A stretch of DNA of 64,000 bases. Source: Mytilus edulis (taxonomy: Eukaryota). Positions 22,265 to 52,781 of this stretch are shown here, in pieces. The notes under the pieces are model-generated. The model saw nothing but the letters and a program-made list of their open reading frames with translations. It ran no database searches and was not told the DNA's origin. Every line of letters starts with the position of its first letter. Position 1 is the stretch's first letter. The stretch is from the NCBI RefSeq assembly GCF_963676685.1, contig NC_092345.1:105276001-105340000 (forward strand). Reading direction: 5' to 3'. Both the position numbers and the translations under genes were made by a program.

Positions 22265-25200
22265 TCAGTATTTCATACAATCAGCACTTGAGTACTGAGT
22301 ACATTGGGAGTTACTGGTCGATTCTGCATAACCTGTGATGTTACTTAATCCAGAACCTACAATAGAAAGAATTATTAAATGCTAAAACCTGGTAACATCA
22401 GAACCACAAATTGCATTTCAATATTTTCGTATTATTCTAAAACAAATGTTTATATGAGTAGTTATATTCTAAGTATTGCTTCTTAACAAAATACTTCTTT
22501 GAGGGATTCAGTCTGTGTGATAAAATTTATATATTGATTGTAACGTTTTCCTTTTTGTTCAATGAAGAAGTTACTGCCCAGTTATTTAACAACACAAACG
22601 GTAGTGAAATCACCTCTAAATCGAGTAGTCACCAACTACTAGTATCAGATTTCATATCTTTTTGACAGTGTTTTCCATTAGGCTAATTTTGATAAGACTA
22701 GTGTGTTTTATTAGCAGGCAGTATCATATATAAATATACAACTCATCTAAACTTGTGGCAATGTAGAGCTTGGCTTTTGGAATGAAACGTTTACAGTGAA
22801 CTCTGCTGATAACTAGTGTGTCAATTGGTCTCTGGTTGAAAGTTGTCTCTTTAACAATAATGCCACATCGTCTTATGTTAATAGCTTCCTTGTTTCTATG
22901 CATTGTCGCATCGCTGTATGAAAATTTTGAACTAATCTTGAAAACTATAAAGTGTTTTAATTCATTTACATAGATATATGAAGATGTGGTTTGAGAGCCA
23001 ATGAGACAACTCTCAATCCAAGTCACAATTTATAAAAGTAAACCATTACATGTCTGATACAAGCTATTAATTGACCATTTATGAGAAAATTGTACAATCT
23101 ATGAATCTTTAATTATTTACCTGTGATTAAGTTGTGTAGATTACAATAGTTTGTTCCATAGTCCAGTACTGCATACCAAGTTTCTGACGTAGAGTAACCC
23201 TGAAGTGGATAGAAAACATGTTAGGATAAGCAAGAACTATTTAACCAGTAATAGTGACAAAAAGTTAGATAGAAGCTCCTCTATAATAAATTACTAGTTA
23301 TCTGTTGGTATTGGTTCAAAATATTTATCGGTTTAGTGTTATTGCAAATCGTACATTTTGTTTTGAATATTTGTCATAGTACTGATTACATATTAAAGTA
23401 AACATTATATAGTACCTCAGTTTTACAATTTATCCCTGCATCACTATTTAAAGGTAAAAGATAAAAGTAAACATTACCTCAGTTTTACAATTCTTTTTTG
23501 AAACCTGTCGTATTACTGATTACAAGTTAAAGTATTAAAACATCCCATAGTACCTCAGTTTTACAATTCATCCTTGCATCACTAAAGGTAAAACATAAAA
23601 GTAAACATTACATAGTACCTCAGTTTTACAATTCATCCCTGCATCACTAAAGGTAAAACATAAAAGTAAACATTACATAGTACCTCTGTTTTACAATTCA
23701 TCCCTGCGTCACTAAAGGTAAAGGTCAAGTCATCTTTATAATGTTTGCTTGGAGTTTCATGTATGGCTTTTAAGGTATTGGTGGATTCACTAACGAACTG
23801 TAAATAAAACAATAATTTTACACACAATTTACATTTACAAAAATAATAAGTAGTTAAGAATATAATATTGTCTTTAAAACCATTAAAACATCAAAAGAGG
23901 CAAGCTTTAGTAACACTTTGAAATCTGACTGGAGATAAATACATTAAAAAGCCTCACATTACCAGTCTTCAATTGACATAGTTTTATTTATAAAGTGACG
24001 TTAGAACCCATGTAAAATAGTACTAGTAATGAATCGCTCACACTGTTGTACTCCAACTTCAGGACCCGCTAATTATGAAATGGTCTCTCAATAAATAAGT
24101 TTAAATTTGAAGACTACATTATTGCAACAAGTCTGCTAATCTTAAAAGAAAGAAAGGATATTGTAGATACATATAAGTATGTATATTTGGACTGACATCT
24201 AGAAAATGGCAAATTAAAAAATCGTTTGAGAACTTAATATGATTATAACTTTCCCATTGTTAACTTTCAATTTTTAAGTACATGCAGCTTCTGAAAATAA
24301 AGTACATGTGAGCTAGATGATACGATATGTAAGGCTTGCATTGCCTATTATCAAATCATTAGTAGAGGCTATGTCTTTCCATATAAATTTTGACTGCCCT
24401 CTTGGTAGCTACATCCTCATTATTTAATTCTTACTTTGTATAGACATTTTTCGCCTCCGTTCTTACAGTTGTCTGGTCCATTCCATAGTGCTATTTGGTT
24501 TTTCAGTTTTGTTTTTACATTACTACACGTCATGGAGGGAAACATCCTAAAAAAGATTCATAAGCAATGTGAGTGATAAAAACATAATAAAACAAGAATG
24601 TGTCCCAAGTACACGGATGCCCCATCCGTACTATCATTTTCTATGTTCAGTGGACCGTGAAAATGGGGGAAATCTCTAATTTGGCATTAAATTAGAAAGA
24701 TCATATCATAGGGAACATGTGTACTCAGTTTCAAAGTTGGTTGGACTTCAACTTCATCAAAAACTACCTCGACCAAAAACTTTAATCTGAAGCGGGACAG
24801 ACGAACGAACAGACGGCCGCACAGACCAGAAAACATAATGCCTATGAATGGGGCAAAAAAAACTAGAGGCTGTAAAGAGCATGTATCGCTTACATTGATC
24901 AATTGCATCTTCGACGATATGCAAAAAAAAACCCAAACAACAACTCATTAATTTGAATCCCAAATCTCATATTCCGAAGTCAAATCAAGTACTCTGGTAG
25001 AGCAAGCTTTTCAGCTTTTGTACAATTAGTTATGAAACCCGCGACTGACGCAAATACTAAGTTTATCTAAGTTTAATTACAACCAATTGGTCGATGCAAT
25101 CGCTGGTGGAGTTTTAATTCCCCCAGGGTACTATCACTAGCCCGGTAAGTTTTAATTCCCCCAGGGTATCACCAGCCCGGTAAGTTTTAATTCCCCCAGG

Positions 25201-26307
25201 GTATCACCAGCCCGGTAAGTTTTAATTCCCCCAGGGTATCACCAGCCCGGTAATCTGAGTAGTCAACTTCTATGTTGACATGTAAGTAAGTAAGTAAATA
25301 GTTTATTAAAGTTTCACATATTGATTGACATAAATATAAACAACATTATATAAATATATACACATAAAACAATCAATATCCAGCCATAAAAACGACTTAT
25401 GAGACACTAAAAAGCTTAAAATTGTCATTGATACGGTCGATCATAATTATAAGTTAATGAGTTTATTTATGAACCGTTTACAAAACTTTGAATTTTTTAA
25501 ATACTAAAGCTTTTCTACCTTATGAATAGATTAGAATTACCGTAGCTGTATTTGGCAAAACTTTTAGGAAGTTTTGGTCCACAATGTTCTTCAACTTCGT
25601 ATTTAATTTGGCATTTTAAACCTTTTTTTTCGAGCGTCACTGATGAGTCTTCTGTAGATGAAACTCGTGTCTGGCGCAAAAACTAAATTTCAATCCTGTT
25701 TTCTATGATGCGTTTCTTGGGAAATTTCAAATAATGAGTTGAAAAGTATAAGACAATGTCATCTGCAAAAACTAGGAGCATCCCCCAAAATAGTGCGGAA
25801 GACATTCATCAATCACGAATCACACTATACATCGGAGTAGTCGGTAAAGATAGGCCCTACTTACTTTAAAATTGCACAGAAACTTGGTATAGTATACAGA
25901 TGATGTTTTAAACTTTCAATCGTCTTCCGAATATTTATAAATTATTTGATACGAAATATCCCCACAGCAACCTCTTTGAACGAAACGAATTCGAGTTATC
26001 TCTCTTTTTTTCTTCTGAAATGGTTATTTAACTTTTTAAAAGAAATCAAACTGAAAGAGAAACAAGTTACAGGTTGTCACAATTAGTCAGTTAAAAATAG
26101 TAGAGTTATATCTTACCAATTAACTCTGCATGAGGCATGTAATGGGTTTGAAGCAGCAAATCCAACAAAAAGTCCAAGACCGGCTAAAACTACGACTGTT
26201 AATACGACCATTGTTATTTTACAACACAAAGGTATTTTCTTGCAACACGAACAGCAGGATTTAGGCGAATTATCAGTTCCAAGCTTCCGGTATGGTTTAC
26301 TGCTCAT
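22265..26307 (-). CDS. Uncharacterised 8-Cys family protein (DUF1499-like motif), predicted type II membrane form, 195 aa, 5 exons
   Basis: Minus-strand exons 26307-26117, 24546-24435, 23797-23684, 23199-23121, 22356-22265 (191/112/114/79/92 nt), all GT-AG. Protein MSSKPYRKL...CCSCCKKIPLCCKITMVVLTVVVLAGLGLFVGFAASNPLHASCRVNW-MFPSMTC...GGEKCLYK-FVSE...HETPSKHYKDDLTF...C-GYSTSETWYAVLDYGTNYCNLHNLIT-GSGL...CTQYSSADCMKY*. Exon 2-5 sizes are identical to both plus-strand paralogs. Confidence 0.9.
23395..23722 (-). repeat. 65-bp tandem duplications of the exon 3 end and splice donor of the minus-strand gene
   Basis: tacctc(a/t)gttttacaatt at 23413, 23475, 23551, 23616 and 23681; the last is the true donor. 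Confidence 0.9.
24591..24862. mobile_element. Short HINE/DINE-like element; inverted second copy at 28903-29189
   Basis: aacaagaatgtgtcc...(gac[ag])n-type microsatellite...gaccagaaaacataatgcc; reverse-complement copy at 28903-29189. Confidence 0.7.
25080..25715 (+). mobile_element. Longest copy of the hammerhead-bearing repeat (degenerate core at 25634-25677), with an internal 35-bp tandem repeat x4
   Basis: Its 3' part (ttaccgtagctgtatttggcaaaac...gagcgtcactgatgagtc...ctggcgc) is collinear with 40995-41170. Unit gttttaattcccccagggtatcaccagcccggtaa at 25111-25253. Confidence 0.7.
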
Positions 26308-26530
26308 GACAATGAATGTACACTTGATAGTACTCGGAAACAAACAATAGTTATATAAGGTATTTAATGTCACATGATTATGAGCGTGGTTTATTTTTGA
26401 AGTTTATAAATAGAATGAGGGACATTAAGGTTGTTAATTTCTTTTTATTTGCTTTTGAAATAAAAAAGCACAAAATAAATTTTATACAAGGATTGAAATT
26501 TCTTTCTCAGAAATTAGTGATAATTATAGA

Positions 26531-27127
26531 TTATCGCTATTTTGTGCATTTTTCCTTTGATCTTTTTTTGTGATAATTTTCATATCATACTTCTCGCTTG
26601 AGATGGAAAAATTATTGCTAGAAACTAAGGAGGCCACGTGGCGTTGCTAACCAAATTGACATGAAATTGACAACGTCGTCATAGGTAAAATAGCGATAAA
26701 CAGATTATCATTGGTCATCTCAACTCGATTGCTTTTCTCACTTTCGCTGTACCAGCTCAAGCGAGAAAATCAATCTCGTTGAGATGATCAACGATAATTC
26801 GCTGTACCAGATCAAGCGAGAAAATCAATCTCGTTGAGATGATCAACGATAATCTCAACGAGATTGATTTTATCGTTGATCATCTCAACGAGATTGATTT
26901 TCTCGCTTGAGCTGGTACAGCGAAAGTGAGAAAAGCAATCGAGTTGATGATAATCTGTTTATCGCTATTTTACCTATGACGACGTTGTCAATTTCAATGT
27001 CAATTTCGTTAGCAACGCTACGTGCCTCCTTAGTTTCTAGCGATAATTTTCCCATCTCAAGCGAGAAGCATGATATGAATATTATCACAAAAAAAGATCA
27101 AACGAAAAATGCACAAAATAGCGATAA
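26531..27127. repeat. About 600-bp near-perfect palindrome (foldback element)
   Basis: ttatcgctattttgtgcattttt... / ...aaaaatgcacaaaatagcgataa. The arms pair almost throughout, and an internal duplication (gctgtaccag.tcaagcgagaaaatcaatctcgttgagatgatcaacgataat x2) lies near the centre. Confidence 0.9.
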
Positions 27128-27628
27128 CATTTGTTATTAAAATAAACATTTCAATCAAGTTAACAGTTAAACATATTATGCGGATATCGATATCACGGAA
27201 GTATAGTGTTTGGCTGAGCTTAAGCCTAGTGTTTTTTCGAGTGAATCGGTCCACTTTTTTCGAGTGTAGATCTTTTTTTTTCGAGTGATATAATACGCCG
27301 TTAGGACATTTTAGCTTAGTTTAGTTTTATTCATGACTGTTTATCTGGTTAATGAAAACTATATACACAATTGTGAGCGCAAACTACGCATAACTTCCTT
27401 GAATATCACTTAGGAAAACTTTACTATGGAAGAGATGATTTCAGCTTCCCAATTGTTAACTTTCCATTTCTATGTAACAACATTCCAAACAGCGCCAGCA
27501 TACAGAGTATATATACAATATCCTCGGGCCAATCTTATTAAAATATTGATCTCTTATTACGTTATACTACATCAGAGATCAATATTTTGATTAGATTGAT
27601 TACGTTATACTATAAGTTATATGGTTCG

Positions 27629-27749
27629 TTACTGACCCCCTACGGATGCATCTTATAGAGGGTTTGTAAAACCCATAAGGGGTGAGGCCGGAGGCCGAAT
27701 CCCCTATGGATTTTATTTACCCTCTATGCATCCGTAGGGGGTCAGTAGT
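27629..27749. repeat. Hairpin element with gaggccggaggccga apex
   Basis: tactgaccccctacggatgcat ... atgcatccgtagggggtcagta, 22-bp perfect arms. Confidence 0.8.
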
Positions 27750-28902: not shown

Positions 28903-29189
28903 ATTTTTATGCCCCACCTACGATAGTAGAGGGGCGTTATGTTTTCTGGTCTGTGCGTCCGTTCGTCCGTTCATCCGTCTGTCCCGCTTCAGGTTAAAGT
29001 TTTTGGTCAAGGTAGTTTTTGATGAAGTTGAAGTCCAATCAACTTCAAACTTAGTACACATGTTCCCTATGATATGATCTTTCTAATTTTAATGCCAAAT
29101 TAGAGTTTTTACCCCAATTTCACGGTCCACTGAACATGGAAAATGATAGTGCGAGTGGGGCATTCGTGTACTGAGGACACATTCTTGTT
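28903..29189. mobile_element. Short HINE/DINE-like element
   Basis: tttttatgcccc-hairpin-ggggcgttatgttttctggtc (gtcc)n ... gacacattcttgtt; reverse complement of 24591-24862. Confidence 0.7.
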
Positions 29190-30874
29190 AGTTATTGATG
29201 TTATGTTATATTATTAATTCGTATATTTTAACAAATTTGATTCGTTTAGAGATAGTCACATGTTAAACTATATTTTCGAAGGTAGAGAGAAAACGGCGGA
29301 TAGCAAAAAGCATATTGCACGGTTATTCGAGATGGCTTGTAAAACTAAGATTTATTGGCAGTATTGACCAAAGCTTTTTATTATTAACACAAATTTAAAT
29401 ATGTACACATATAGATTCAACGATATAAATTGTTCAACTAGATAGATTCATAGATGTATAGATTCATAGATGTATAGATCATTTTTTGGTTACCTCTGGC
29501 AACCTACAGATACTAGATAGATATATATAGATAGATAGATAGATGTATGATCCTGGGATACAGCGATCAACTAACTTAGCTGTTGGATCCTGGGATACAG
29601 CGATCCACAAAATGTACTTTTAATGTCACTAAAATATAGACAACTGTAACTGTAGTTTATCACACGCAGCGAAGTTGCCAAACACATTTTTCACTTTTTA
29701 ACGATCAAATGTTTCTATACAACCAACATCTAACTGACTACTGCAATTTTTGACATCACATGGCAAATCATCAATGGAGGAGAATTTTTCATACTGGAAC
29801 TCTAACTACTCGTATATACATGTACCTGAAAATAAAAAGAACAAAAGAGCAGTACCCAAACAAAACTACATGGTTTAACTATATATGGTGGAGGGAGGGT
29901 GGGTATTTTCAAAATACTTCTCTCTGTATTGTAATTACACGTTTGTTCACTTGCAGCTCAAAGTTGAAAAGAACGCTAACGTCAAATTGACGTCACCACT
30001 ATACAGCTTATCGACTATATATGCATTTATAAAGGAGAGCACTGCAACGGACGATATTAAAACTTTCCACTAGAATAACCGAATTTATGTATATATATTA
30101 CATAAATTCTATTATTTTTAGAATATCTAAAAACCGATATACTTTGTGACGTCATGTAATGAATTTCTGGATATTGTTTAATGTTTTGAAACAAATGTTA
30201 TCTGTGATTGATTATTTGACGAAAAAAAGTCTTCAAATACATAAGATGTCCTCAGTCAATATACTTCTTTCAGGTCAATATATCCTTGTATCGACCTCAT
30301 ACAAGTGCTATATTTGTATAATATAATTTGAGATATTTTAGCCTAAGAATTATTTTTTATCTTTTTCTTTTGCTCGGTGTTCTTGGCTCTGTGTTCAGAA
30401 CTTAACAAAGGTAAAATTTGAAATGTGATGTCAATGGTGATACTATTGTGTCATTGGAGTTACTGAAGGGTCAGTGGTGTTAGTACTTACTATATAAAAA
30501 TGCGACATTTTATTTATTTTCATTCATAAATATAAGTGTTTTTTGAGGTCGTGTACGAAGTATTAGGTATATCTTTATCATTCAATCTTACACAATTCAC
30601 ATATATTCATTTTAAGTGCATATTTTAGTATTTACAACGGCCATGATTAGGACAGCCAACTTTTTTACGACAATGTATTCTGAAATTATTTTTGAATAGA
30701 ATGCACAGCTATATGAATAATGCCAACAAGTCGTAATTTTAACCTAATTAACAAATTGGAACAGTTGTTTGATGTTAAACAATAATATCTAGTAGCTAAA
30801 TCTATGCTTTAAATTGGTAACACCATTGACACGATTCTATCAAAGCATGACCTAAAATTGTTAAAATTGAAGGA

Positions 30875-31860
30875 ACTCTTCATATTTCCCATTGCATATT
30901 TCTGAATATCGTTGCTACCATACTATAGAATAATTCCTTGATAGAGGATTGCTGATCACAAGCTATTAAAGCAATAGTTCCAAATGGTGAAGTTGAAATC
31001 ATTTCTTCGTAAATTTTACAGACAACATCACGAGTTGGTTGATCGTTATATGGAATAAGCGTTTCACAGATGATAAAGGATATGTTACTTATGTCGTAAC
31101 TATAATCCGTTTCCCTATTCACTACGAATGTGACATATTGAATTAGACTATTTACCGGGTTTGTTATAACATGAGCAACACGACGGGTGCCACACTTGAA
31201 GCAGGATCTGCTTATCCTTCCGGAGCACCTGAGATCACCCCAAGTTTTTGGCGGTTTTCGTGTTGTTAAGTCTTTAGTTTTCTATGTTGTGTCATATGTA
31301 CTGATGTTTGTCTGTTTGGTATTTTTTTCGTTCCCTATTGTTAATTTTCCCTTTTTTGGTAATGTTCCTTTGGCACCATCTTACGGTGTTTATATTTCAC
31401 AGCTCGTTCGCTATGTTCCTGTCTGTTTTGACGTTTTCGATATTATTGAATATAATCTATCATGCATTACTGGTAAATTGTTAAGCCAGGGATTTCGTTA
31501 CCACAATTTACTTAAAGCCTTTACTAAATTCTTCCACAGACATAAATATTTGGTTTTGAAGTTTGGTTGTGCCTCTAGAAAGCTTATTTCAAACGGGATA
31601 GCACATCCTCATATTTACGGAGATGTTGTTTTATACCGTGCCCGGGAATTTAGAAACGATCCTGGCAAACTAATTAGCTTGTTCTCTGCTGAATGCTACA
31701 CTTTGTTCATAGTTTTTGAGTGTAGCGTAATACAAGCGGATTCCAATTGAGTAAACTTATTGATCCTTTAATAAAATTATTCTAAAGTGTTACCAATTCA
31801 ACACTGTAATTAGATCCTTGAATAATGTTTTATTGGTATTAATATTGATTTTGTTATCAG
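30875..31860 (+). mobile_element. Two fused Penelope-like fragments
   Basis: 30940-31320 is the reverse complement of about 4610-5000. From about 31325 the sequence encodes FSFPIVNFPFFGNVPLAPSYGVYISQLVRY...KLLSQGFRYHNLLKAFTKFF. Confidence 0.75.
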
Positions 31861-33258: not shown

Positions 33259-33316
33259 CCTTGACAGAGAAGACAGACTTTCTTTACAAGTTGTGCCTCT
33301 AAGAAGAACAATCAAT

Positions 33317-36300
33317 ATGAATAGTTATATTTCAGTAGCTCTTGTTGCTATCTTTGCTGGATGTTCAATTGCCTATCCAACCCATGCTTCCTGTAAAATA
33401 CAATGGTAAGTATATATTTGACATTTAAACTTATATTAGGACCATATGAACTCGGTAAACTGATATTCTATAAATACTTGAAGACGCACCAGGTAAACGT
33501 CAACGAAGGCATGCATTTGATTTTTCATTATAAGTACGTTTTCAAATAGCTACTTGAAAATTCGAACTCTATTCATTTATATATATATTTCAGAATTTTT
33601 TAATTGATCAGTTTGTATAAATTATTTGCAATATTCAGATGCAGTTCAATGCATTAAAAAAAAAGTCGTTAATACCGCCCACTTTTACTTCTCTTTTAAT
33701 TCTGACAATGGCTGGCTTGTAGTAAGTCAAAAGTTTACATATATTACGCATATAAAATAAAATTCCAAAAGTAATAGGTAACGTGTCTGAAGTTCTTATC
33801 GTTGGATTTCAAATATATTCTCTTATCATCAAATTATTTTACTGCCGCAGACACTATGCTATGACAAAATGGCTAGTTTTATTCTGAGATCTTGTTGAAA
33901 AGATCTTTACAATTTAAGCTCACTTTGCCTTTGAGCAATGCAAACTATTATCATCGCTGGCTCACCCTGCGTCCGACTCCCACCCTTCGTCGTCGAAATA
34001 TCTTCTTTTAAATATTTTCAAAAGACCATAGGACAAATATAAACCAAGCTAGAACTAACCCTTAGTTTGTCTGATATATATAAAGATTAGGTATCTGTTA
34101 TTTGACGTATCATCGTTTTTCGTCATGACATTGTCAGGGTTTTATTCGACTTAAATTAGTTGAATACATGTATCACGCTCAGGTGATGGAGGACAAGACT
34201 GTGGCTAAGATAAAAAAAAAATATATACTTGAACACGTTTATATTCATCTGTGACATAGATCATAATCATAACGGTCAACAAAATCATGATAATATCAGT
34301 ACACGATAAACATAAGCTATATTGAGCTTTTTGTCGTCTAAGTACCATTAAAAAGTATATTTCAAAGTTTCATGAACTGCAAAACATTCAATGGGATAAC
34401 TTTCCTGTTTTCAACCAAACGCAATCTTTGAATATTTCTTATAAGCAGTTTTGAACGTTTGTGAGCTACGGCTTAATAAATGGATAAAGGCATGTATGAA
34501 AATTCAAAAAGCTCAACAACTTCAATACTTTTTCGAAATCTGTGCAGGAATAGTTAAAATCCGTTTGGAAGTACTTTTGTAAATTCAGAACATTACACTA
34601 AATTTTATGTTTGGTGTTAATGCAATTTTTATTTGTAATTTTGCCAGGACATTTGGAATCAGTTGTGATATGGTAAAGGACAAAATCAAGACCCAGATCT
34701 CTACATGGAAAACAGCAGATAACTGTCCAAATGGAGCAGGCGAAAAATGTCTGTATACAGTACGTATTGTCAGGAGTTAAAAGTTGTCTATAATAGACAA
34801 GTAAAAAGTTGCTGCAAGAAGTTCTTTTACTTTATTAATTACAATTTTACCGATTAAGTATGTTTTATACATTTTAACATCAGTATTTTGTTTTAAACTA
34901 AAATATTTTAAATGCTATTTAAAACCTCTTTAGATCTGGTATGTTTTCTATTCGTTGTAAGCTCTACCTATACCGAAGGGTTTTGTTTTTGCAGATGAAC
35001 CAAACACATTTATAGTAGTATGCATTCCTTCATTTAACATAAGATGAGTGATATTGGCTACTGTGTGCACGGCATGTGTTTCTAATATATCCAATCACAA
35101 ATTAAAAAAAACAACATTATGTATCAAGTATTGCAACATAAAAAGGACCAGGACAGCTCATCATTTCTTTTTTAAGCCAATTTTACCCGAGCGAGTGTCA
35201 ATCATTCCTTAGTTGTTAAATATTTTCATGTCCTTATGTTAGGATCAGATATTTTTAAATCGTTGGAATTGTTGGATTCGAAATATGATCTTTCTATATC
35301 ATTTTATACTTAATATATATGCGTAATGTTGCAAGGAACTGAAGTAAATGAAACTGTTTACCAGTTCCTTTGTTCAAACGATCCTTCATACTGCATCGTA
35401 TAAAAAAATGTTTGGTATAGTTTAGCAGGCTGACTGAATGGTAAAAACAGTAAAGAGCCTCTTGATTTAGCGCAGTAATTTGAATATCATGTTTGAAAGA
35501 TACGCTGTAACTTGACTGTGACTAAATAGTACACCAACTTAAGAATTACAGACATATTTGCGGTAAGTACTGTAATATCATAATAAGACTAGCCTCGTTA
35601 TGTTCTTGTATAATGCAGTACCTTCATTATAATACTTTTAAATTGATTGTTTATTTATTTCACTTGATGTTTCAGTTTGTGAGTGAAACAGATACAACTA
35701 TAACAGCAAAACACGCGACACCAGTTAAACACTACATGGACGATTTGACCTTCACCTTTACTCCAAGTAACAGCATGTGCAACGTCAAGGTAATTTTAAG
35801 GGTTATTCGGATATGTACTTCTCTTTATACTTTTGTTATATAAAACAAAATCTTTGGTCACATGAAAATATTTAATTGATAAAATTTTCTTTTTTATGGT
35901 AAATACAATTCCGCAAGCGTCGCTCAATAGTATCGTCTATTGCGCGCGATCCGGTACCTATTGTCGATATATACATCTGGTGCAGTAAAACTTGTAGTGT
36001 AAATATTTTAAGTATTATATGCGTTTGGCGTACTAAATTATAATCCTGGTACCTTTGATAACTTTTTATGGCTTTATATGTTCTAGTTGTTTAATAAAGT
36101 AGGTAAGGTAAATTCGTTTTAATAATGTTTTAAAATGTTTTAATTTGTAGGGTTACTCCACATCAGAAACATGGTATGCTTACCTTGACTACAGCACAAA
36201 CTATTGTAATCTTAACAACCTTATCACAGGTATGTCATTACCTAATCATAGGTAGAACTACTATATTAACTTATATATGTAGGACTCTAAAGTGCGATGG

Positions 36301-38932
36301 TACTCTAAAGTGCGATGGTCACGCTAAAGTGCGATGGTACTCTAAAGTGCGATGGTCACGCTAAAGTACGATGGTCTACGCTAAAGTGCGATGGTGTCAG
36401 ACGCTAAAGTGCGATGGTTGTTTGTTTTTTAAGTGCGATCAGAAATCAAGCTAAAGTGCGATGCTATGACACGCTTAAGTCCGATGGTGTAACGGGAATG
36501 TGGTTCAGGCAATGGTTTTCGTTTGTTGCTGAGTTCCTATTACATTTTCGTTTATTGTTTTGATTATGTGTCAACCGTAGTCTTAATCTTTTGAATTGTT
36601 TTACACTGGTCATTGTATAACCCTATATAGCTTGTAGCGGCATGGACCAATGCTAAAACGTTGACGGCCGTATGATTATTAGCCGCATACATGTTTATTT
36701 AAAGTACGATAGTTGTTCAAAAGGTGTAATGGTTACACTGAAGTATTGTTAGTACATCTGGAATGTAGTGGAAGTCGTTTTTTAATATAATAATATGTTA
36801 TAAGACAATGCCCCGTATTAAAGGTCATAATTAAAGTTGCATATTTCAATGACATTAGGTCGAAGATAGATAGTTGTCGTATTGGCAGTCATATAGTATG
36901 ATGATACTACACATCTGTTTGTTAGGTTGCTGTCTAATTGACATATGCTAGTATTTATTATTTAACAGAAATAACAAACCGTATAGTATTTTTTTTTGTA
37001 TTGAATAATTCAATTAATAAGTAAATGTTTTGATTAAAGTTATTTCTACAATTTCACAAATTAAGTTAACCTATTCCAGCAACGACCAAAAATTCCAGAT
37101 TGGGATCATTTGTTTTTCTTTTCTCTTCTTTCTTTTCTCGTGTAATAAAAATCCTTAATCTGGACAAACATTCTCGTCATAATGCTGTCGAACGTTTATA
37201 ACGTCAATGTATTTGCAGAAAAACGCACTTTAGCGTATCAAACCATCGTACTTTAGCGTAGGCCATCGCACTTTAGCGTGACCATCGCATTTTAGCGTCC
37301 CCATCGCAATTTAGAGTCCTACCTATTACTTTATCACATGTTTGCAAATCATGTAGTAACTGGTTTGTCCATAATAAATACAAGCATGATAAAAACAGAA
37401 ACACTAGCATGATAAAAGACAGAAACACTAGCATGATAAATACAGAAACACTAGCATGATAAAAGACAGAAACACTAGCATGATAAAAGACAGAAACACT
37501 AGCATGATAAAAGACAGAAACACTAGCATGATAAAAACAGAAACACTAGCATGATAAAAGACAGAAACACTAGCATGATAAAAGACAGAAACACTAGCAT
37601 GATAAAAGACAGAAACACTAGCATGATAAAAGACAGAAACACTAGCATGATAAAAAAAAACAACACCAGAAACACTAACATAAATTAAAACAGAAACACT
37701 AGAATATAAATTAAAAAAAAAGAAACACTTGCACGATAAAAACAGAACACTAGCATGATTAAAAACAGAAACACTAGCATGGTAGAATCCTATGAACAAT
37801 CTTAAATTGAAAGTTTTGCAAAAAAGAGTTTCTGGTTATAATGAAGGGCATGGAATAAATAGCATTCCAATCCTCAATCTGCATATTTAAATCTCTTTCC
37901 CATTTTTTACAGGAAGATAAAGATAACACTTTATTATCCTCCAAAAATAATGTATAGAAAAATTTACAAGATTTTGGTTCCTTTTTAACTTTATCTATAT
38001 ATTTTTTTTCAATAATTTCCAGTTTTGAACTTACTTCTTTTATACTTTCCCATCTCTTTGGAATCGCACTTAAAATACTATAAAATTCTACAAAATTAGT
38101 ATTGATATCATACTTTTTTTAAATTCATCATATGAGAATAATGTATTATTATCTGACATCAGATCATTAATGAAGAATATACTATTTTCAACATATTTGA
38201 ACCTCAAAATCATCTTGCCATCCATTTTGATGTTCGGATTCAGCCATATGGACTGGGTCAAAATTTCAGTATTGTTTTCAGCTTGAAGCTTATTTTTTAA
38301 CTTGGAAAAAAATACCAGGATATCATGCCAAAATGGATTAACTTTTTCTGCTAAATAAAGTAAACCTGCTTGACTTAAGTGTAAAATCTTGTCCCCCCCC
38401 AAATTTTTGTATATAACTAAGTAGCAAGACTTTCCAAGGAGAGTAATTTTGGGGATCTAATAATTTATACAGCCAAGACATTTTACACTATAGCAAAAAT
38501 AATAAATATTAGGCATCTTAAGACCACCATCACAGTGTTCGGACATTATCACTGCCCTTTTCACTTTATCAGGTTTTCCTTTCCATAAGAAGTTAAAAAA
38601 TATATTCTGAATCTCCTTCAAAACCCCTTCTGGGGGGTTAGGAAGGACAGTCAGAACTTGAACCAACATGGGAAGTGCTAAAGTCTTAATAACTACAACC
38701 CTCCCAATATATGTTAGTTCTCTATAAGCCCAAGTAATGTATGCAGTTAAACATACAAAACTTGACACGAGTAAACATAGGTCTTTCTGGATATGATTCG
38801 CAAGATCTTATAGAAAATTGAATGTCTAATTTTCTTTCAGGTTCTGGACTTGACAAGGTTAATGCATACAAGGAGGTCACAAGTGATTCTGTTTGTACAC
38901 AATATTCCAGCAAAGACTGCGATAAATATTAA
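33317..38932 (+). CDS. Uncharacterised secreted 8-Cys family protein (DUF1499-like motif), paralog A, 161 aa, 5 exons
   Basis: Exons 33317-33405, 34648-34759, 35676-35789, 36151-36229, 38841-38932 (89/112/114/79/92 nt), all GT-AG. Protein MNSYISVALVAIFAGCSIA|YPTHASCKIQWTFGISCDMVK...GEKCLYTFVSE...HYMDDLTF...GYSTSETWYAYLDYSTNYCNLNNLITGSGL...CTQYSSKDCDKY*. Confidence 0.92.
36280..37321. mobile_element. MITE with TIRs and subterminal ctaaagtgcgatgg repeats
   Basis: taggactctaaagtgcgatgg ... ccatcgcaatttagagtccta; about 9 motif copies on the left and about 5 inverted copies on the right; possible TA TSD. Lies in intron 4 of paralog A. Confidence 0.85.
37383..37781. repeat. 24-bp minisatellite (acactagcatgataaaagacagaa), about 16 units
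   Basis: Directly visible; units at 37401 and 37425. Confidence 0.95.
37797..38733 (-). mobile_element. L1/Tx1-like LINE ORF2 fragment (post-RT region), frameshifted
   Basis: WAYRELTYIGRVVVIKTLALP...PNPP...IQNIFFNFLWKGKPDKVKR...GGLKMPNI and NPFWHDIL...IWLNPNIK. Confidence 0.85.
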
Positions 38933-39862: not shown

Positions 39863-40682
39863 TCATATCAAAATATTTATAACGCCAAACAAGTACAAAG
39901 TTGAAGAGCATAGATGATCCAAATTTCCCACAATTGTGACAAATATGAAGACGAACCGCGTTGTCTGGCGTATAAAAATATAATCCAGGTATCTCTAATA
40001 ACTCTTTATAATATACTATGCATAAACAATAATATCTACAACAAATTAGGTCTTGTTCCTCGGAACTTTGTTTCTTATCTCGCAAGGTCGTCGGATAATA
40101 ATTAAGTAGGATTTGTCTTATAAACCTAACCACACTCATTTAGTTCATCGAGAGATTACAAATAAAGTAGGTATAAAACGAGCACAATGATATGTACCAC
40201 AAATTAGGTCTCCTGTTTCGGACCTTGTTTTTCTTATTTTGCAAGGTCGTCGGATTACAAGTATATTGTTTATAAAACGTACCAAATATTCCTTTATTTT
40301 AATATCAAGGAATATTTATAACTTGTATTATACTCGAACATTGATATAAAAAGGTTCAGATTTAAAAGTATATCTAATTATTGGGTCTTATATTTAGATT
40401 ATACAGTACTTTTTAATGATTTCGAATTCAAATGCAAAATTTAAATTCTAAGAATGATTCTAACAGACCTAGCTTGAACATATTCCGACTTGTTCTTGAG
40501 ATTCAAATTGCTCTTTAATTAAAATAATTTGATTTAAAGAATATTACCATATTTAAGACGGAAAATATTGTATAAGTTTGTTAATTCAGAAGACCATTTA
40601 ATATTATATTCTTCGTTGAATATCTCGGACAGAAACTTCCCAATTAAATTATGAAAACAGTTTATATTTTGTAATTTTTTTG

Positions 40683-40715
40683 GACATTTGGAATCACTTG
40701 TGATATGGTAAAGGA
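40683..40715 (+). pseudogene. Truncated orphan copy of exon 2 of the 8-Cys family (paralog B type) with a destroyed acceptor
   Basis: gacatttggaatcacttgtgatatggtaaagga matches 48534-48566. It is preceded by tttttg instead of tttag and breaks off after about 33 nt. Confidence 0.85.
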
Positions 40716-44164: not shown

Positions 44165-47100
44165 ATGAATAGTTATATTTCAGTAGCTCTTGTTGTTATC
44201 TTTGCTGGATGTTCAATTGCCTATCCAATCCATGCATCCTGTAAAATCCAATGGTAAGATTATGTAATTTTTTAAACATATATTTTACTTTATATCTTTT
44301 TTAAGAGTGCATCTTTTTCCGATACACAGACATTTTGTTATTTGCCTTTTTGTGTTTTGTTGCTTTTCATAGTGATTAAGATTATAACACAACGTTGACT
44401 GCTGAACCCCACTTTTGACATATTTACCTAACATGTCTGTTTGTTTTGTTCAATCGTCGTTGTCAATATAATGGAATTTTATGCGACTGACATACAGGTG
44501 AGAGGTTAAACTAGCTATAAAACCAGGTTTAATCCACTATTTTCTACATAAAAAATACATGTAACAAGTCAGCAATATGACAGTTGTTATACATTCGTTT
44601 GATGTGTTTAAAAAAGCGATAAGGTCTATATTATTGGGACATTTAAGTCATATTCAGGTTTGCAACGTTTTTATGAAGTTTAACTGAACTTATTTCCAAA
44701 AATGCTCTAACACCACCAAATCATAGAAGAATTGTTTATGATTTCTGATCGATGGAACTATTATCCACAGTTAAAACTCGCGTTTAGTTAACCAACATAT
44801 TACAGTATACATAAAACGAGCACAATAATATCTAAATTTAGAACAAATTAGGTCTTGTTCCTCGGAACTTTGTTTCTTATCTCGCAAGGTCGTCGGATAA
44901 TTAAGTAGAATTTGTCTTATAAACGTAACCACATTCATTTAGTACATCGAGAGATTACAAATAAAGTAGCCATTTCCATTCTCAATTTTATTTTAGGTAT
45001 AAAACGAGCACAATGATATGTACCACAAATTAGGTCTCCTGTTTCGGAACATTTTTTTTCTTATTTTGCAAGGTCGTCGTATTACAAGTATATTGTTTTT
45101 AAAACGTATCAAATATTCCTTTATTTTAATATCAAGGAATACTTCACTACAAACCATTAAAGTCTGAAATGGCCTATATCTGTACTCGACTGTACTGATT
45201 TTTACTCGACCAGTCTGAATTGGTCTGACTTTTACTTGACATTACTCGACCCAAGTCTGAAGCATACTTGACTGTACTGAATCGTACTTGACCCTTATCT
45301 TTGCTGTTGAAAATAGTCTGAACTATTACTCGACCAGTCTGAAACAGTCTTAACACAGTCTTAACCCATTCTTGACATGTAATCTACCTATTTTTTCAGT
45401 CTAAACCATACTTAACCAAAGGTCTGAACAATATTCGACCAGTCTGAACCATACTAGACCAAAAACCCTCTACTTTTTTAACTGTTTAAATAAGTCTTTT
45501 TTTAACTGACATATATAACAACAGCCAACAAAATTTATAAAAGATTTTAACCTTATATAAGAAATATATCTCTGATTATATTTAGGTTAAAAAAAAAATA
45601 TTATATGAAACTTATATAAAAAAAGGGATAAAATTGAATAAATAAATAAAATTATATTTCTGATTAGTGGTGAAATATAAAGTATAACCTCTGCTTGGGG
45701 CAAACTCATCAATAAGATCACACCTGATCAGAGGTATGAAGTCTAAATAACATTGATTCAAAATTGCAACATCCTGTTTAAATTAAATAACAAGGCCTTT
45801 CGAATATACATGTATGTACTAGATAAGTAATACACGAATTAAAGAAAATAGGGCTTTCTTTTTACCTGTAAAACACACATGTACTGAGTAATTTAGAACA
45901 TATTAAAGTGCTTTATGTATGCCATGTTAATTTGACAAAAAATACTTAAATTAGTTTTAAAATTTTTTTATTGTTACTTTGGAATACATTTCCTTTCTTA
46001 AAAAGTTATCAAAGATTGCTAGGGAAATTCTATTATAATGATTATATTAGATTTTTGGTTTAATAAAACAAAACTATTTTATATATATCTTAATAAAAAA
46101 AAACATTCACTGCATTAAGTCAACTGACAACATAAATCTATACTAGGCTTAAGTTAATGGTGAAAATAGTCCAATTACCATAAAATACTTCCGAAATATT
46201 CATAAAATATGAATAATATTGAAGATATTAGTCACAATTCATTTTTTTTTAAATTATTTGATCAGCTTGTTTCATTTATATTTTAAAAGTTGATATATAT
46301 TATTCTCTTATGGTTGGGGCCTGTTAGAATAGATATTTTTCGTATCACACCGTACGGAGTGTGATATGAAAAAGTGATATCAAAATTACGTTAATTTGAT
46401 TGGCTTATCTCGTAAATTTCCAATATTTTCATTGGCCGTTGATCAGGTCATTATTCACTGGAAAAGGTCATGACGGGACTACTTTTTTTCTTGACAACTG
46501 ATTGTTTACCTCCGGTTTTCGCGATTTTCGTCTGCTTTATCGTCTGTATTATCTAATATAAATCTTATCATGGACGAAGAAATAAAGAAAGGAACCCGTG
46601 TACGGATATGTAACGGAGCAAAGGGCATTATAACTGGCACAACTTCCAATTTCAATTTCCCTCTGTATGCGACAGTAAAACTACCGATGGACGCCGCAAA
46701 GCTTCAAATATAATACAGTTATCTCTATTCTAATGCAAAACAAGTTCATAATTAAATTTCAATCACAATTTCAGTGTAAAATCTTCATTAAAGAAAATTA
46801 CGTGAAAAGATGTTATCTTCTTTGGTCCCTACACTACGTGACGTCATAGGTATGCTTCCGGTGTCATACATGTGCCGCATCAGAATATAATAAAATTTGA
46901 TAAAAAGAAGATTTTAAGGCGCAACAAGTGAGTTATTTGTTAATTATTGTAAAAACAACGTGTCAATACACTTGTTACAAATAAGATAACAGGCCCCAAC
47001 CATAAGAGAAAGATCAGTTCGCGTTGCAAAGAAAAACGGCCGTAGCAACACAACTCGCAACAAATAGGCCACGCACATACAACTTTTTGCCATAAGAGAA

Positions 47101-50100
47101 ATAGGTTTAACAACTTGTGAGAATGTCGTTATTTAATTTCACTAATAATAAACTCGCCATAGGCTCGTTTATTATTATTGAAATTAAATAACTCGAGTTG
47201 ATATCAATCGATATCTAATTCTCACTCGTTATGAAACCTATAATTATGTAAGTGTTGATTAATATTGAGTTGAAGTTATATTATGATTGATTATTGTGAA
47301 ATTTTAATTTCAATACTGTATTGAATACATTTTTAATTTCAAGTTGTTGTTTAAATTTCATTTTTATTAAATAAAATCCTAAATTGATAAAATTCAGTTA
47401 ATAGATACAAAGAATAGGTCTAGTTTGGTTAAGACTCGGTCGAGTATGGTTGAGACTAGGTCGAGTACGGTTCAGACTAGGTCGAGTACGGTTCAGACTT
47501 GGTCGAGTACAGTTTAGACTCGTATAAAACGGTTAAGTACTGGTCAAGTACACATTCAGACTGTTAAGTATGGTTCAGAATTCAGTCGAGTATTATCAAG
47601 TAAATCTCAGACGAATTCAGACTGGTCGAGTAAACATCAGTACAGTCGAGTACAGATATAGGCCATTTCAGACTTTTCATGGTTTGTAGTGCTTATAACT
47701 TGTATTTTACTCGAACATTGATTTAAAAGGGTTCAGGTTTTAAAAGTATATCTAATTATTGGGTCTTATATTTAGATTATGTAGTACTTTTTAATGATTT
47801 CGAATTCAAATGCAAAATTTAAATTCTAAGAATAATTGTAACAGACCTAGCTTGAACATATTCCGACTTGTTCTTGGTGTCAGACCACCAATTACTCCCT
47901 CAAATTTAGAACGTATGTAAAAGTAGGCCTACTCGGGACAAAAAATAGTGCATTTGATGTCATTGTTTACTTAAACTACCCAACAAATTTGCAGAAATGA
48001 AACTTTTGGTGAAAGAGAAATATATTAAGACCATTTTGAGCCCAAATTTACTTGTCTATGAGTTGAAATTAAAAATTGAGGATTAATGCGCTCCATAGTA
48101 TACTAATTTAAGATTTCAAGAAAACCAGGGGTTATTTTTAGTGGTACATCCATTCGGAAGGTCTCTTCTTTCTTATATGGCTTTAAAGGTATGTCGAAAA
48201 TTGGCATGCAGAAAGGTGATACCTGTACGATTCAGGACATACCTGGTTTGTAAGAGGTTAAACTTAAGATAAAAAATTTAGAAAGCTATGAAAATTGCAA
48301 AATTTGGTTGAACAGGTAGGGACTTTTAATTGGTGGTCTGACACCTCTTGAGATTCAAATTGCTTTAAACTAAAATAATTTGATGTAAAGGATGTTATCA
48401 TATTTAAGACGGAAAATATTGTATAAGTTTGTTAATTCAGAAGACCATTTAATATTATATTCTTCGTTTAATATCTCGGACAGAAACTTCCCAATTAAAT
48501 TATGAAAACAGTTTATATTTTGTAATTTTTTAGGACATTTGGAATCACCTGTGATATGGTAAAGGAAAAAATCAAGACCCAGATCTCTACCTGGTCTACA
48601 GCAGATAACTGTCCAAATGGAGCAGGAGAAAAATGTCTGTATACAGTACGTATTTTGACTTTTCGTTAGTAATAGACAGGTATTTTACTGCAAGGAGTTC
48701 ATATACTTAATAAATTGTAATTTAATCCGTTATGTATGTTTATACATTTTGTTAGTATGTTGGGGTAAACATATATTAATTAGGATGAGGAAACAGTAGT
48801 ATACCACTATTCAAAAGTCATGAACCGATAGAGAGAAAATAAATCCGAGTTATGAACAAAAACCAAGGAAACACATAAACTGTAACTGTATAAACCTCTT
48901 TAGCTCTGGTATATTTACTGTTTGTTTTATGTAACAATTGTACTAAAATGAAACAAAATGGGTCGATGCGCTCACAAACTGAAAAAAGAATGTATTATAT
49001 GTAGAGTTTGTGAATCAGCGGCTCAATTATTTTATGGACTTCACCTTTTTTAATTTGCTTTGAAGTTCAGTTTTGTTTTTGGTATTCTTATTCTATAGAA
49101 TATGTGTTTAATTCATATATCTTGAAACACGCATTAATTACCTTTTTTCGACGCTGACTGTCGGTAATAATATCGAATCGGTCGCCATAGATCTAATGAT
49201 GCTTGACTAATCTGTACTATTCAGGAATATTACAGTTGTTATTCATTCGGTCGATGTGTATGAGTTTTGATTTTGCCATTTGATTTGGGTCTCTCCTTTT
49301 TTCAATTTTCCTCGGAGTTCGGTATTTTTTGGTATTTTACATTTTGTTTGTAACGACGTGGATGCTATCACAGTCACTGTTCTTTTCTCTAATTTAACGA
49401 AAATGTAATTTCTGATGTTTTAACATTCGTTTGTAAGTAAAGCAAGTGCAAACCATATCAATGCAAAAACGTTCAAAGAAATATAATTCAAAAGTACAAA
49501 AACAAAAGTCTAAACAGAACAGACAGTAACGTCAACTCATTGGACTATCATATAATACGTTTTTCAAGTTTTATTTTCGGCATTTTGTTCATATTGGCAA
49601 AACCTCGTTGACCATACATGGTTAAGACATATTCCATATATAATAATATTAATTAACTCATCAAAGATACCAGGCTTATTATGTTTTACGCCAGACGCGC
49701 GTGTCGTCTACAAAACGACTCAAAAGTGACATTCGAATCATTACAGTTATAGAATTTATAGATTTAAATCGTTATGTTCATATGAAATGTTATACCTTCA
49801 CAAAAATACTTGCATATTTTTAAATGTTATAAACTCGTTTGATTTTGGTTTAAATAGAAACATGTTTAATCGGTAGTTTCTACAAATGAAGATGCCTGTA
49901 ACAATTCAGGAATATGACAGTTACTTGTTAACCATTCGTTGGTGTGTTTGAGCTTTTAATTTTGCAATTTATTTTTTTATGGTTTTTCCGTTTTGCAATT
50001 TTTTTTGTTATCTTACTTTTTGATATTTTAGTTTGTTGGTGAAACAAGTACAACAATTACAGCAAAACACTCGACACCAGTGAAGCATTACCTTGATGAT

Positions 50101-52781
50101 TTGACCTTCACATTGACAGCAAGTAACAGTATGTGCAATGTCAAGGTAAGTCCAAGAGACACACAATTGAAATAGTTCAATAAACTCATCTTAGATACCA
50201 CGACTAAATTTTGTATATACGCAAGACGCGCGTTTCGTCTACAAAAGACTCATCAGTGACGCTCGAATCCAAAAAAGTTGAAAAAAAAGCCAAATAAAGA
50301 ACAAAGTTGAAGAGCATTAAGATCCAAAATTCCTAAAAGGGTTGCCAAATACAGCTAAGGTAAATAAAGGCAACAGTAGTATACCGCTGTTCAAAACTCA
50401 TAAATCCATGGACAAAAAACAAAATCGGGGTAACAAACTAAAACCGAGGGAAACGCATTAAATATAAGAGGAGAACAACGACACAAGGTAATCTATGCCT
50501 GAGGTAGAAAAGCCTTATGATTTCAAAAAATTCAAAATTTTGTAAACAGTTAATACATTCCTTCACATTTTTTTATGGATTGTCAATGATCATATGAAGA
50601 CATTGATTTGATTAACCTTCATAATCTAAGAAATTATATGCAAGGTGTATAAAAGGAGAGCATGTCATAGGACAAAAATATGCAAAACTTTACGAAATGT
50701 CAGAGAAAAAGTCAGAACTAAGTTACATATTTTTACTAGGATGCCATTTTGAACAAAAAGTAAGCATTTACAGTCAGTTTTGTTCGTTTTTTTTTAAATA
50801 AGGATAAAAACTTCGCTTATACACTTTTGGTCGTGGAAGACACGAATTTTCATCAGAATGTATGCGCCTTATATGATATGACCAATTGGAGATCGATTGC
50901 GCATGTGATATACATGTTCAAATGGTAAAAAGTATGTCAGATGTAAAGGTGAGACAAGAAAATGCACCAGGGGGCGATTTTTTGGGGTAAAGGCTCGTCA
51001 CAACGTCATAAAGGTGAGACAAGAAAATGCACCAGGGGGCGATTTTTTGGGGTAAAGGCTCGTCACAAAGTCATGCTTATACACATAAAAAGATGCTTTT
51101 CATAATCTTTTCATTGTGTTAAATTAAAAAAATTCTTACTGTACTAGTATATATTATCAGATAGATGTCCATTATCACTGTACTAGTATACATTATCAGA
51201 TAGATGTCCATTATCACTGTACTAGAATACATATTTTTTAAGGGGCCAGCTGAAGGACGCCTACGGGTGCGGGAGTTTCTCGCTACATTGAAGACTTATT
51301 GGTGGCCTTCAGCTGTTGTCTGCTCTATGGTCGGGTTGTTGTCGCTTTGACACATTCCAATTTCCTTTCTCAATTTTATTAGAATACTATTGCATGTAAA
51401 TATCTTATATAAATTATATTTTTGCATTTTTTTTATATCTAGATCAAATACCCATCGTAAATCTCAGCCTTGTCGATGGTTGATTGAATAGTCTCCAGAC
51501 CTAAAAGAAATAAAAGGGCATATAAACTCATAAATCAAAAATAAACTGTTAACACCATGTAAAATCATAAAAAGAACAAAAACAAACAATCATGAAATAT
51601 TGTTACTTTATGACGATTTCAATCTTTGTTTGTTGTTTCTAAGATTTGTTTAGTAATTCTGATATCTATTTTATAACGTTATTAGTCAAATTTGAGACTT
51701 GTAGTCAATTTTATGGGCATGGATTGCCAGGTAATTGTGAATTATATCGGTATATCTATGTATGAACATAAACATATGCATACCTGAAGTCGCTTACTAG
51801 TATAAGGTTTCGATTCTATCGTCCCAAGGTATCTCTTTTTGTAAATAATGTTGTTTACTTACATCTATCTAATAATTTATACTGTTTAAATTGTAGGGTT
51901 ACTCCACATCAGAAACATGGTATGCTCACCTTGACTATAGCACAAACTATTGTAACCTCAACAACCTGATCACAGGTATGCAATATCTTAATGTAAAATA
52001 ATATGGACACCAATACTAAAATTCAATTAAGTATACACATGTATTAAAAGCATAGCAAAAATACCAAACTCCTATTGAATTTCGAAAAATGAAAGTCCAA
52101 AAAATCTAATTAAATTAAAAGACATTATCAAGGAAGGACGAAAGATACCAAAGGAACAGTCAAACTCATAAATCGAAAATAAACTGACAACGCTTGCTAA
52201 AAATGAAAAAGACAAACAGACAAACAATAGTACACATGACACAACATAGAATAAACTGTTAACACCATGTCAAAACATAAAAAGAACAAAAAACAAACAA
52301 TCATAATATCAATTTACAGAACAAGTGAAAAAATGTCATATTCCTGACTTGGTATATCCTTTTCCTGAAGGATATTGTGGGTTAAACCTGGTCTTATAAC
52401 TAGCTATAAAAGAACCGTCTTGTATGACATTTGTCAGAAACGGCAGAAAAACCTTGCCATGTTAATGAAAGTATTTTTAATTGTATGGAATCTGTTCATG
52501 CAATTTAAATAGCCGTAAAGAGTAGAAAGGAAATGTCAGTATTAGCGCCTTATTTGTATCCAATATGTTAAAAGGAAAAACAATATACTAACGTTTTATG
52601 CAATTAAAAATTTAAATATTTAAACAGGCCTAAATATATTCTCAGGGGGTTATGCTATCAAAAAATGATTTGGTTTATTTTTATTTAAGGATCCGGACTG
52701 GACAAGGTTAACGGATACACCGAGGTTACCAGTGATAGTGTGTGCACACAATATTCCAGCAAAAATTGCGAAAAATATTAA
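44165..52781 (+). CDS. Uncharacterised secreted 8-Cys family protein (DUF1499-like motif), paralog B, 161 aa, 5 exons
   Basis: Exons 44165-44253, 48534-48645, 50032-50145, 51897-51975, 52690-52781. Same sizes and phases as paralog A; 16 of 161 residues differ by hand count. The last acceptor is AAG. Confidence 0.92.
46303..47101. mobile_element. Nested unclassified element with split inverted repeats
   Basis: ttctcttatggttggggcctgtta (46303) pairs with taacaggccccaaccataagagaa (about 46988-47011); ccataagagaaata recurs at about 47090. Confidence 0.6.
47102..47240. repeat. Hairpin MITE
   Basis: taggttt...gtgagaat..gttatttaatttcactaataataaac / gtttattattattgaaattaaataac..attctcac...aaaccta. 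Confidence 0.7.
47876..48345. mobile_element. 470-bp MITE, 19-bp TIR, 4-bp TSD TCTT
   Basis: ggtgtcagaccaccaatta / taattggtggtctgacacc; tctt on both flanks; empty site acttgttcttgagattc at about 40488-40504. Confidence 0.9.
50219..50262 (-). ncRNA. Minimal hammerhead ribozyme copy, core intact, one stem I mismatch
   Basis: acgcaagacgcgcgtttcgtctacaaaagactcatcagtgacgc, within a repeat at about 50180-50550 that is interrupted at about 50362-50485 by a fragment of another family. Confidence 0.7.
50944..51075. repeat. 65-bp direct tandem duplication (followed by a 41-bp one at about 51138-51230)
   Basis: taaaggtgagacaagaaaatgcaccagggggcgattttttggggtaaaggctcgtcacaa x2. Confidence 0.85.

Follow-up and report, generated by a model that had tools for sequence, protein, structure and literature searches.

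A cluster of three five-exon genes, here designated A, B, and C, was identified by motif scans and exon modelling in a stretch of Mytilus edulis DNA of 64,000 nucleotides (contig NC_092345.1, positions 105,276,001 to 105,340,000; this whole stretch is the window, and all coordinates below are counted from its first letter). We tentatively propose, as a reading given somewhat less than an even chance, that the three products could be luminal binders or carriers of small molecules in lysosomes and related organelles, existing in anchored and soluble forms and acting beside lipocalins of the apolipoprotein D (ApoD) type. Sorting motifs, domain fusions, the expression of fish relatives, and, among the fold neighbours, KA1 domains and the small-molecule-binding START/Bet v1 proteins suggest this reading.

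As originally predicted from the sequence, exons 2 to 5 measure 112, 114, 79, and 92 nucleotides (nt) in A, B, and C alike; all 12 introns have GT-AG ends, and the intron phases are 2, 0, 0, and 1 in each gene. The products of B and C are 90% identical (145/161), whereas A is 56-57% identical to both (91/160 to B and 90/160 to C), and each mature domain contains eight Cys residues. The locus is an ordinary tandem duplication. Evidence for splicing was taken from the contigs of four runs, one recorded as RNA and three only guessed to be RNA, which were aligned at loci A and B, the evidence for C consisting of C-type letters and loose ends found there. All four introns of gene A were skipped by a single contig in each of the four runs, and at locus B each of the four introns was skipped in two to four of them; spliced contigs cross the predicted junctions at A and B. 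Contigs with the B-type exon 5 together with C-type letters and loose ends were also detected. The contig depth was far higher on the B/C exons than on A, but depth cannot rank these genes and no expression reading was drawn from it. Upon search of the mussel's own genome with exons 3 and 4, the only copies found were those of A, B, and C, one extra match (E=2.3) containing a stop being left uncounted. The genes had been taken for uncharacterised and missed as genes; the former holds, but they are already annotated, since the gene A protein is identical over 195/195 residues to XP_071158722.1, an uncharacterised protein of M. edulis, and four further Mytilus species have annotated orthologues, likewise uncharacterised.

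The N-termini of A, B, and C were judged by hydropathy only. Hydropathy supports one membrane-tethered form and two of the secreted type, as first claimed, with a predicted anchor in A and predicted signal peptides in B and C, the longest uncharged run being 23 amino acids (aa) in A versus 18 in B and C. The tail of A carries the motif YRKL, followed by a cluster of Cys residues that may be palmitoylated, and is conserved as well as the domain itself (29-32 of its 32 residues identical in four Mytilus orthologues); YxxL is also present in the long forms of oyster, scallop, and echinoderm. YxxPhi and dileucine motifs are established adaptor-binding endolysosomal signals, and gene A, with such a motif ahead of a predicted anchor of membrane length, has the layout of an endolysosomal type II membrane protein.

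Among a total of 292 classified N-termini of the family, 169 were short signal-peptide types, 62 carried a tail of at least 20 residues before the hydrophobic segment, and 61 were intermediate or without segment. After the long tails were de-replicated at 40% to 36, YxxPhi or acidic dileucine was found in 18 of them versus 7.3 +/- 2.1 after shuffling, and 0 of 3000 shuffles reached 18. Dileucine alone accounted for 7 tails (1.1 expected from shuffles) and YxxPhi alone for 12 (6.5 in shuffles, p=0.007). At least two Cys residues stand beside the anchor in 14 of the 36 tails, and the uncharged run is 22.2 aa in the motif-bearing long forms (n=27) versus 15.7 in the short forms (n=52). The extracellular location first assigned to the family is put in doubt by the endolysosomal sorting motifs of the anchored forms.

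A role outside the cell, with B and C secreted into mucus or haemolymph as lectin-like or microbe-binding proteins and A recycling at the cell surface as the receptor of their ligand, is judged unlikely. The signal peptides of B and C stand without a visible lysosomal signal, four disulfides are predicted, the conserved Trp/Tyr and Asp/Asn residues would suit sugar binding, YxxPhi fits endocytosis, and the animal members are nearly all aquatic among the matches listed; however, an identity of 50-60% across eukaryotes appears high for an immune effector, the genome copies are only three, and the fish relatives (see below) are pigment-cell-specific in expression, as far as the available parts of the published accounts go. 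The name C-type lectin attached automatically in UniRef/ESM Atlas was rejected, because Lectin_C was matched in 0 of 54 members and the predicted model is TBP-like, a different fold; the sole Lectin_C match was to a separate C-terminal part of the single-member cluster P0253.

The family is wide. A profile of exon 2 retrieved 120 proteins, including many fragments of one exon each, a 54-sequence profile retrieved 1003 representatives at E<=0.001, and an 88-sequence profile retrieved 304 clusters, while exon 3 alone as query gave no homologue and no ESM Atlas match. Named animal members come from molluscs, a brachiopod, a bryozoan, nemerteans, an annelid, a rotifer, a priapulid, crustaceans, a springtail, echinoderms, hemichordates, and cnidarians, and named vertebrate members from sharks, bony fish, coelacanth, and amphibians. 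The family is not the animal branch once supposed, as members were also found in Syssomonas (a unicellular holozoan), Ancoracysta, the diplonemid Flectonema, the brown alga Hapterophycus, and Phaeothamnion, the Syssomonas domain being 56% identical to A (79/140). No amniote or winged insect was among the matches listed (best 120 of 304 and best 150 of 1003), and absence from these groups is not claimed. The ESM Atlas clusters were of eukaryotes only, one with 19% DUF1499. A divergent non-animal subfamily (P0210, P0217, P0236, P0249, and P0140) carries the domain twice in tandem, together with a W-x-D-P-H-N motif. Two family-like genes (L064:3992-5125 and L065:1-582) sit in two prokaryote genome bins; these were rejected as bacterial members and not counted, because the contigs look eukaryotic and are probably contamination. 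A candidate name for the family is PANTHER PTHR38564 (si:ch73-250a16.5-related), under which no paper was found.

In a quick version of the tree, from which P0170 was dropped and in which 43 of the 96 inner branches were left open, long and short forms are interspersed; 22 changes are counted over 34 long rows, and well-supported branches force no fewer than four of these changes. The vertebrate paralogues lie on their own side of a branch with support of 99 and are all short or unclassified. This interspersion fits an anchor gained or lost several times while the activity stayed the same, and does not fit a fixed receptor-ligand pair. That A binds B and C as a distinct ligand-receptor pair is very improbable. 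A adjoins B and C with divergent transcription, and the split of A from B/C may predate the mussel-oyster split, oysters having both forms (Shimodaira-Hasegawa approximate likelihood ratio support 84-90, below the mark of 95). The adjacency is, however, explained by tandem duplication, the conserved site is identical in all three, long and short forms recur over the tree, and many species have a single form among the rows listed. Of the two systems first envisaged, the receptor with its soluble partner is accordingly unsupported, and tethered and free forms of one activity fit better, the activity being enzymatic only under the rival reading weighed below.

Conserved residues were counted in 99 aligned domains, with the numbering of gene B. 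S108, C26, and C150 are invariant (99/99), and H23, H80, D89, S110, W113, Y114, D118, N122, N125, and E143 are present in 91-98 rows, D118 in 98, H23 and H80 in 96, and D89 in 95. The conserved His, Asp, Ser, and Tyr residues of the original prediction are all recovered, with Asn in addition, and the site residues are the same in A, B, and C. Going by the strand order of the predicted model, they fall where strands 1 and 4 and helix 2 begin and where strands 3 and 5 finish, and may cluster at one pole of the antiparallel sheet. Pairing of C56 with C64 is suggested by their joint loss in a cod paralogue.

The likeness to DUF1499, noticed at first from motif spacing, was recovered both by profile-profile alignment and by predicted structure, though mostly with Pfam scores below the cut-off. 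Against the gathering cut-off of PF07386 (22.6 bits), gene B exon 3 scored 14.6 bits and 9 of 12 full-length relatives scored 12.7-17.6 bits; 42 of 54 members matched at E<=1 (best E 2.8e-4), and three other members passed the cut-off (P0137, 23.4; P0300, 26.5; P0358, 26.1 bits). No match to PF07386 was obtained with the Mytilus A orthologue or, exon by exon, in the mussel's own genome. From 62 collected bacterial and cyanobacterial DUF1499 loci, 58 domains were extracted, and a profile of these bacterial domains scored B, C, and A at 16.4, 12.5, and 10.5 bits. HHalign of the family against bacterial DUF1499 gave 93.0% with a score of 44, the controls reaching at most 17 (60 column shuffles) and 15 (reversed), and an independent pair of alignments gave 96.2% over 62 columns. 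The core of three strands and a helix aligns, including Y/F-x-D-D, S-x-S, and D-x-G-x-N, and many bacterial members likewise begin with a hydrophobic export or anchor segment. In contrast, of the invariant R-S-x-S-R-x-G-x-x-D-x-G-x-N-x-x-R of DUF1499, the present family keeps S, S, D, and N but replaces the three Arg, the Gly being kept in A and replaced by Ser in B and C; the eight Cys, the HASC first strand, the GEKCLY loop, the WY insert, and the Cys-stapled C-terminal tail are specific to the present family. It is a eukaryotic branch, rich in Cys, that is related to DUF1499 but has diverged from it and, lying mostly below the cut-off, is not a member at the Pfam level. DUF1499 itself is distributed in bacteria, cyanobacteria, and Chlamydomonas (CPLD48), and the available parts of the four DUF1499 papers found give no function. 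Around the bacterial genes (98 open reading frames at 32 of the 62 loci, flanks of 1.5 kb) no recurring partner was detected except YchJ, at four related loci. In one bacterium two duplicated DUF1499 genes adjoin each other (L067/L068).

AlphaFold2 models of the family member P0026 (62% identical to B; predicted local distance difference test, pLDDT, 88.6) and of a cyanobacterial DUF1499 protein (pLDDT 91.6) have the same helix-four strands-helix order and share 36 of their top 50 structural neighbours, the folds being compared by the order of elements and by neighbours. The P0026 model, with five main antiparallel strands and two helices, is TBP-like/KA1-like, and four disulfides are predicted to hold this TBP-like/KA1-like half of a helix-grip fold. 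The seven-stranded helix-grip of START/Bet v1 with its cavity was not recovered (template modelling, TM, scores 0.3-0.5). A sequence search of PDB gave only two viral glycoprotein chains at E=0.17, which were taken as chance, and a fold search of BFVD gave TM scores up to about 0.43 and nothing specific. Homodimer predictions of the domain (0.17 and 0.16, with a mark of 0.32) were counted neither for nor against.

Domain fusions were scanned in 49 relatives, picked mostly for length. The family domain stands behind Lipocalin_2 in four of the 49 and behind a papain protease in one; with the divergent L064 member, in which the lipocalin is on the opposite side, the lipocalin fusions total five, all in non-animal members. 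One of the lipocalin-fused relatives is named as of the apolipoprotein D family by its source. The papain fusion could also speak for a small secreted or lysosomal enzyme, tethered and free, that would use His, Asp, and Ser at the conserved pole to act as a hydrolase, lyase, or cyclase, like certain proteins of the helix-grip fold. The near-invariance of S108, D118, H23, H80, and D89, the identity of 56% between the mussel and Syssomonas domains, and the cyclases and hydroxynitrile lyase among the fold neighbours would be in line with such an enzyme, which we nevertheless consider rather unlikely: a half helix-grip has no enclosed cavity, no solved enzyme was matched by sequence in the PDB search, neither His belongs to the invariant set of DUF1499, and fish paralogues without D89 persist.

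Two zebrafish genes published as pigment-cell markers belong to the family. LOC100535932 is the family cluster P0335 (49% to A; its Danio aesculapii member, 73/140 to A) and, in the available parts of the source, is expressed at 221 reads per kilobase per million (RPKM) in iridophores versus 0.98 in melanocytes, 4.64 in retinal pigment epithelium, and 0.18 in embryos, being listed there with ifi30l and gpnmb (PMC3706446). The other, wu:fc46h12, is tied to the family through P0139, a carp-family orthologue of that name (59/140 to A). As given in the parts available, it matches the xanthophore marker gch2 at 24 hours post-fertilization (PMC6594659), is a xanthophore marker (bioRxiv 10.1101/527341; PMC6588384), is grouped with apod and pigment genes (PMC11773731), and appears in a brain-injury gene table (PMC5752677). 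Within the same limits, apoda.1 marks iridophores in two supplements (PMC6588384, PMC12146710), iridosomes and xanthosomes are lysosome-related organelles (PMC7584913), and the identity of the guanine-crystal template and the macromolecular components of the organelle are described as unresolved (PMC13110779). A structural luminal scaffold, templating or coating guanine, pteridine, or urate crystals and granules in lysosome-related organelles, would agree with that description (PMC13110779) and with the enrichment of more than 1000-fold in iridophores versus embryos (PMC3706446), both from partial texts. Such a scaffold is, however, highly unlikely, as the model is compact and globular (pLDDT 88.6), not an amyloid-like repeat, evidence for crystals in the expressing mussel cells is lacking, and no pigment phenotype is reported for the xanthophore paralogue in the available part of its account (PMC6594659).

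In the small-molecule carrier reading that we prefer, A would be a type II membrane protein sent to endolysosomes by its cytosolic YRKL, and B and C would enter the secretory pathway and then either reach the compartment of A or be released. H23, H80, D89, S108, S110, W113, Y114, D118, and N122 would form one polar-aromatic site at one end of the sheet, and the ligand might be a dietary or metabolic molecule, lipophilic or heterocyclic, that ApoD-type lipocalins deliver or receive. In fish, pigment cells would have recruited paralogues for organelles that store purines, pteridines, or carotenoids. In its boldest form, to which we give little credence, this would be an ancient unnamed eukaryotic family of the organelle lumen derived from bacterial DUF1499, binding purines or pteridines or handing pigments to ApoD-type lipocalins and supplying one of the protein components still missing from the guanine-crystal iridosomes and xanthophore pigment granules of fish, with mussel A, B, and C as its invertebrate forms, anchored and soluble.

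Several observations weigh against the carrier reading. YxxPhi is also a signal for simple endocytic uptake at the plasma membrane, no motif is present in 18 of the 36 long tails, some long tails are over-extended annotations (the current model of P0013 is 165 aa), and 169 of the 292 classified proteins, including the vertebrate members on the tree, are short forms without a visible sorting signal. In gene A, a second in-frame ATG at 26211 lies in a stronger context and would turn the hydrophobic segment into a signal peptide, for which a possible cleavage site is present; one GenBank model starts at this ATG, and gene A may for these reasons also give a soluble form. The four lipocalin fusions of the same order may stem from a single stramenopile event. 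The fold is common and no match stands out (top Z 9.8; 19 chains with Z>=8), it shows no function, and the inferred spatial clustering of the conserved residues follows from strand order, not from coordinates. As to the fish, the link to organelles rests on cell-type expression only, and the wu:fc46h12 paralogue is without D89, Y114, and N122 in the alignment. According to the available part of its account, wu:fc46h12 is later expressed in ventral crest, heart, and aorta, and fish without the gene are viable; their maternal-zygotic embryos show a heart oedema that is transient, and no pigment defect is reported (PMC6594659).

Databases already contain the genes under the label uncharacterised, and two fish paralogues are published as markers. 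In a search that covered neither subscription papers nor most supplements, no paper was found that connects the fish markers and the mussel genes with one another or with DUF1499, sorting motifs, or lipocalin fusions. Four things are here joined, namely the fold of DUF1499, sorting tails of the endolysosomal type, fusions to lipocalins and to a protease outside the animals, and two zebrafish markers of pigment cells that had been anonymous. The family, which has a bacterial root and stays at 50-60% identity all the way from protists to sharks, probably serves a basic process. The carrier reading would offer a candidate for a protein in the lumen of iridosomes and xanthosomes and a first approach to the function of DUF1499, and a zebrafish allele of one paralogue already exists.

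Table 1. Positions in the window of genes A, B, and C, their exons, and related elements.
Feature	Position	Strand	Basis or remark
Gene A, 195 aa	26307-22265	-	exon model
A exon 1 (coding): 32-aa N-terminal tail, hydrophobic anchor, domain start (HASC)	26117..26307	-	model; spliced contigs extend to 26315-26390
A YRKL, residues 6-9, YxxPhi sorting-type motif in tail	26281..26292	-	kept in Mytilus orthologues
A hydrophobic segment, about residues 31-52	26152..26217	-	hydropathy
A exon 2, 112 nt	24435..24546	-	model and spliced contigs
A exon 3, 114 nt; H-x-T-P, Y-x-D-D	23684..23797	-	model and spliced contigs
A exon 4, 79 nt; S-x-S-x-x-W-Y, D-x-G-T-N-Y-C-N	23121..23199	-	model and spliced contigs
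A exon 5, coding part, 92 nt with stop	22265..22356	-	model and spliced contigs
Gene B, 161 aa	33317-38932	+	exon model
B exon 1: signal-peptide-like N-terminus, HASC	33317..33405	+	model and spliced contigs
B exon 2	34648..34759	+	model and spliced contigs
B exon 3; DUF1499 E=0.045 by itself	35676..35789	+	model and spliced contigs
B exon 4	36151..36229	+	model and spliced contigs
B exon 5, coding part	38841..38932	+	model and spliced contigs
Truncated stray copy of exon 2 start, C-like	40658..40715	+	splice acceptor not intact; minisatellite cuts copy off
Gene C, 161 aa	44165-52781	+	exon model
C exon 1	44165..44253	+	model; C-type exon 1-2 loose ends in contigs
C exon 2	48534..48645	+	model; C-type letter in contigs
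C exon 3	50032..50145	+	model; own-genome exon 3 search
C exon 4	51897..51975	+	model; own-genome exon 4 search; C-type exon 4-5 loose end
C exon 5, coding part	52690..52781	+	model

The stray copy of exon 2 was rejected as a fourth gene, because it is truncated and its acceptor is broken, and was taken as a remnant of the B/C duplication. In gene A, a 65-bp tandem repeat (2.7 copies, 23546-23722) copies the 3' end of exon 3 with its donor site into intron 3, and of the duplicated donors only the first is used by the spliced contigs. A dispersed repeat in intron 1 of gene A (24590-24840) attracts very many contigs from the RNA-type runs, and a similar element is located near 28920-29190. Just upstream of gene A, at 26500-27130, is an apparent long inverted repeat with an internal 55-bp duplication. 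Farther off, an open frame at 3287-4024 (plus strand) begins like a signal peptide and includes a stretch rich in Ser and Thr and a region containing Cys; it gave no Pfam match above cut-off and probably represents exon 1 of an adjacent gene for a secreted or surface protein. A frame of 306 codons at 15399-16316 (minus strand), lying between 26-bp tandem repeats and likewise without Pfam match above cut-off, is possibly transposon-derived. The frames at 18595-19029 (minus) and 31175-31747 (plus) had no Pfam match at E<=0.1, and we take them to resemble decayed pieces of retroelement reverse transcriptase.

With respect to known systems, KA1, the BamC helix-grip, the adaptin appendage platform, AHA1-C, and START/Bet v1 have the same arrangement of sheet and helices (Z 8-10, root-mean-square deviation 2.3-3.4 A over about 90-110 residues), but their identity is 7-18%, they are mostly cytosolic and without disulfides, and only the fold is shared. 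The zebrafish LOC100535932 and wu:fc46h12 are of the same family as the mussel genes but are vertebrate paralogues beyond the branch with support of 99, and the available parts of the published accounts give no domain or mechanism for them. NPC2, the GM2 activator, and the saposins, together with PLD3, are different in fold and gave no match in the sequence or structure scans of the family, but serve from general knowledge as working analogies, the first three as small disulfide-bonded luminal carriers and PLD3 as a type II lysosomal protein in which a cytosolic N-terminal tail sorts a luminal domain.

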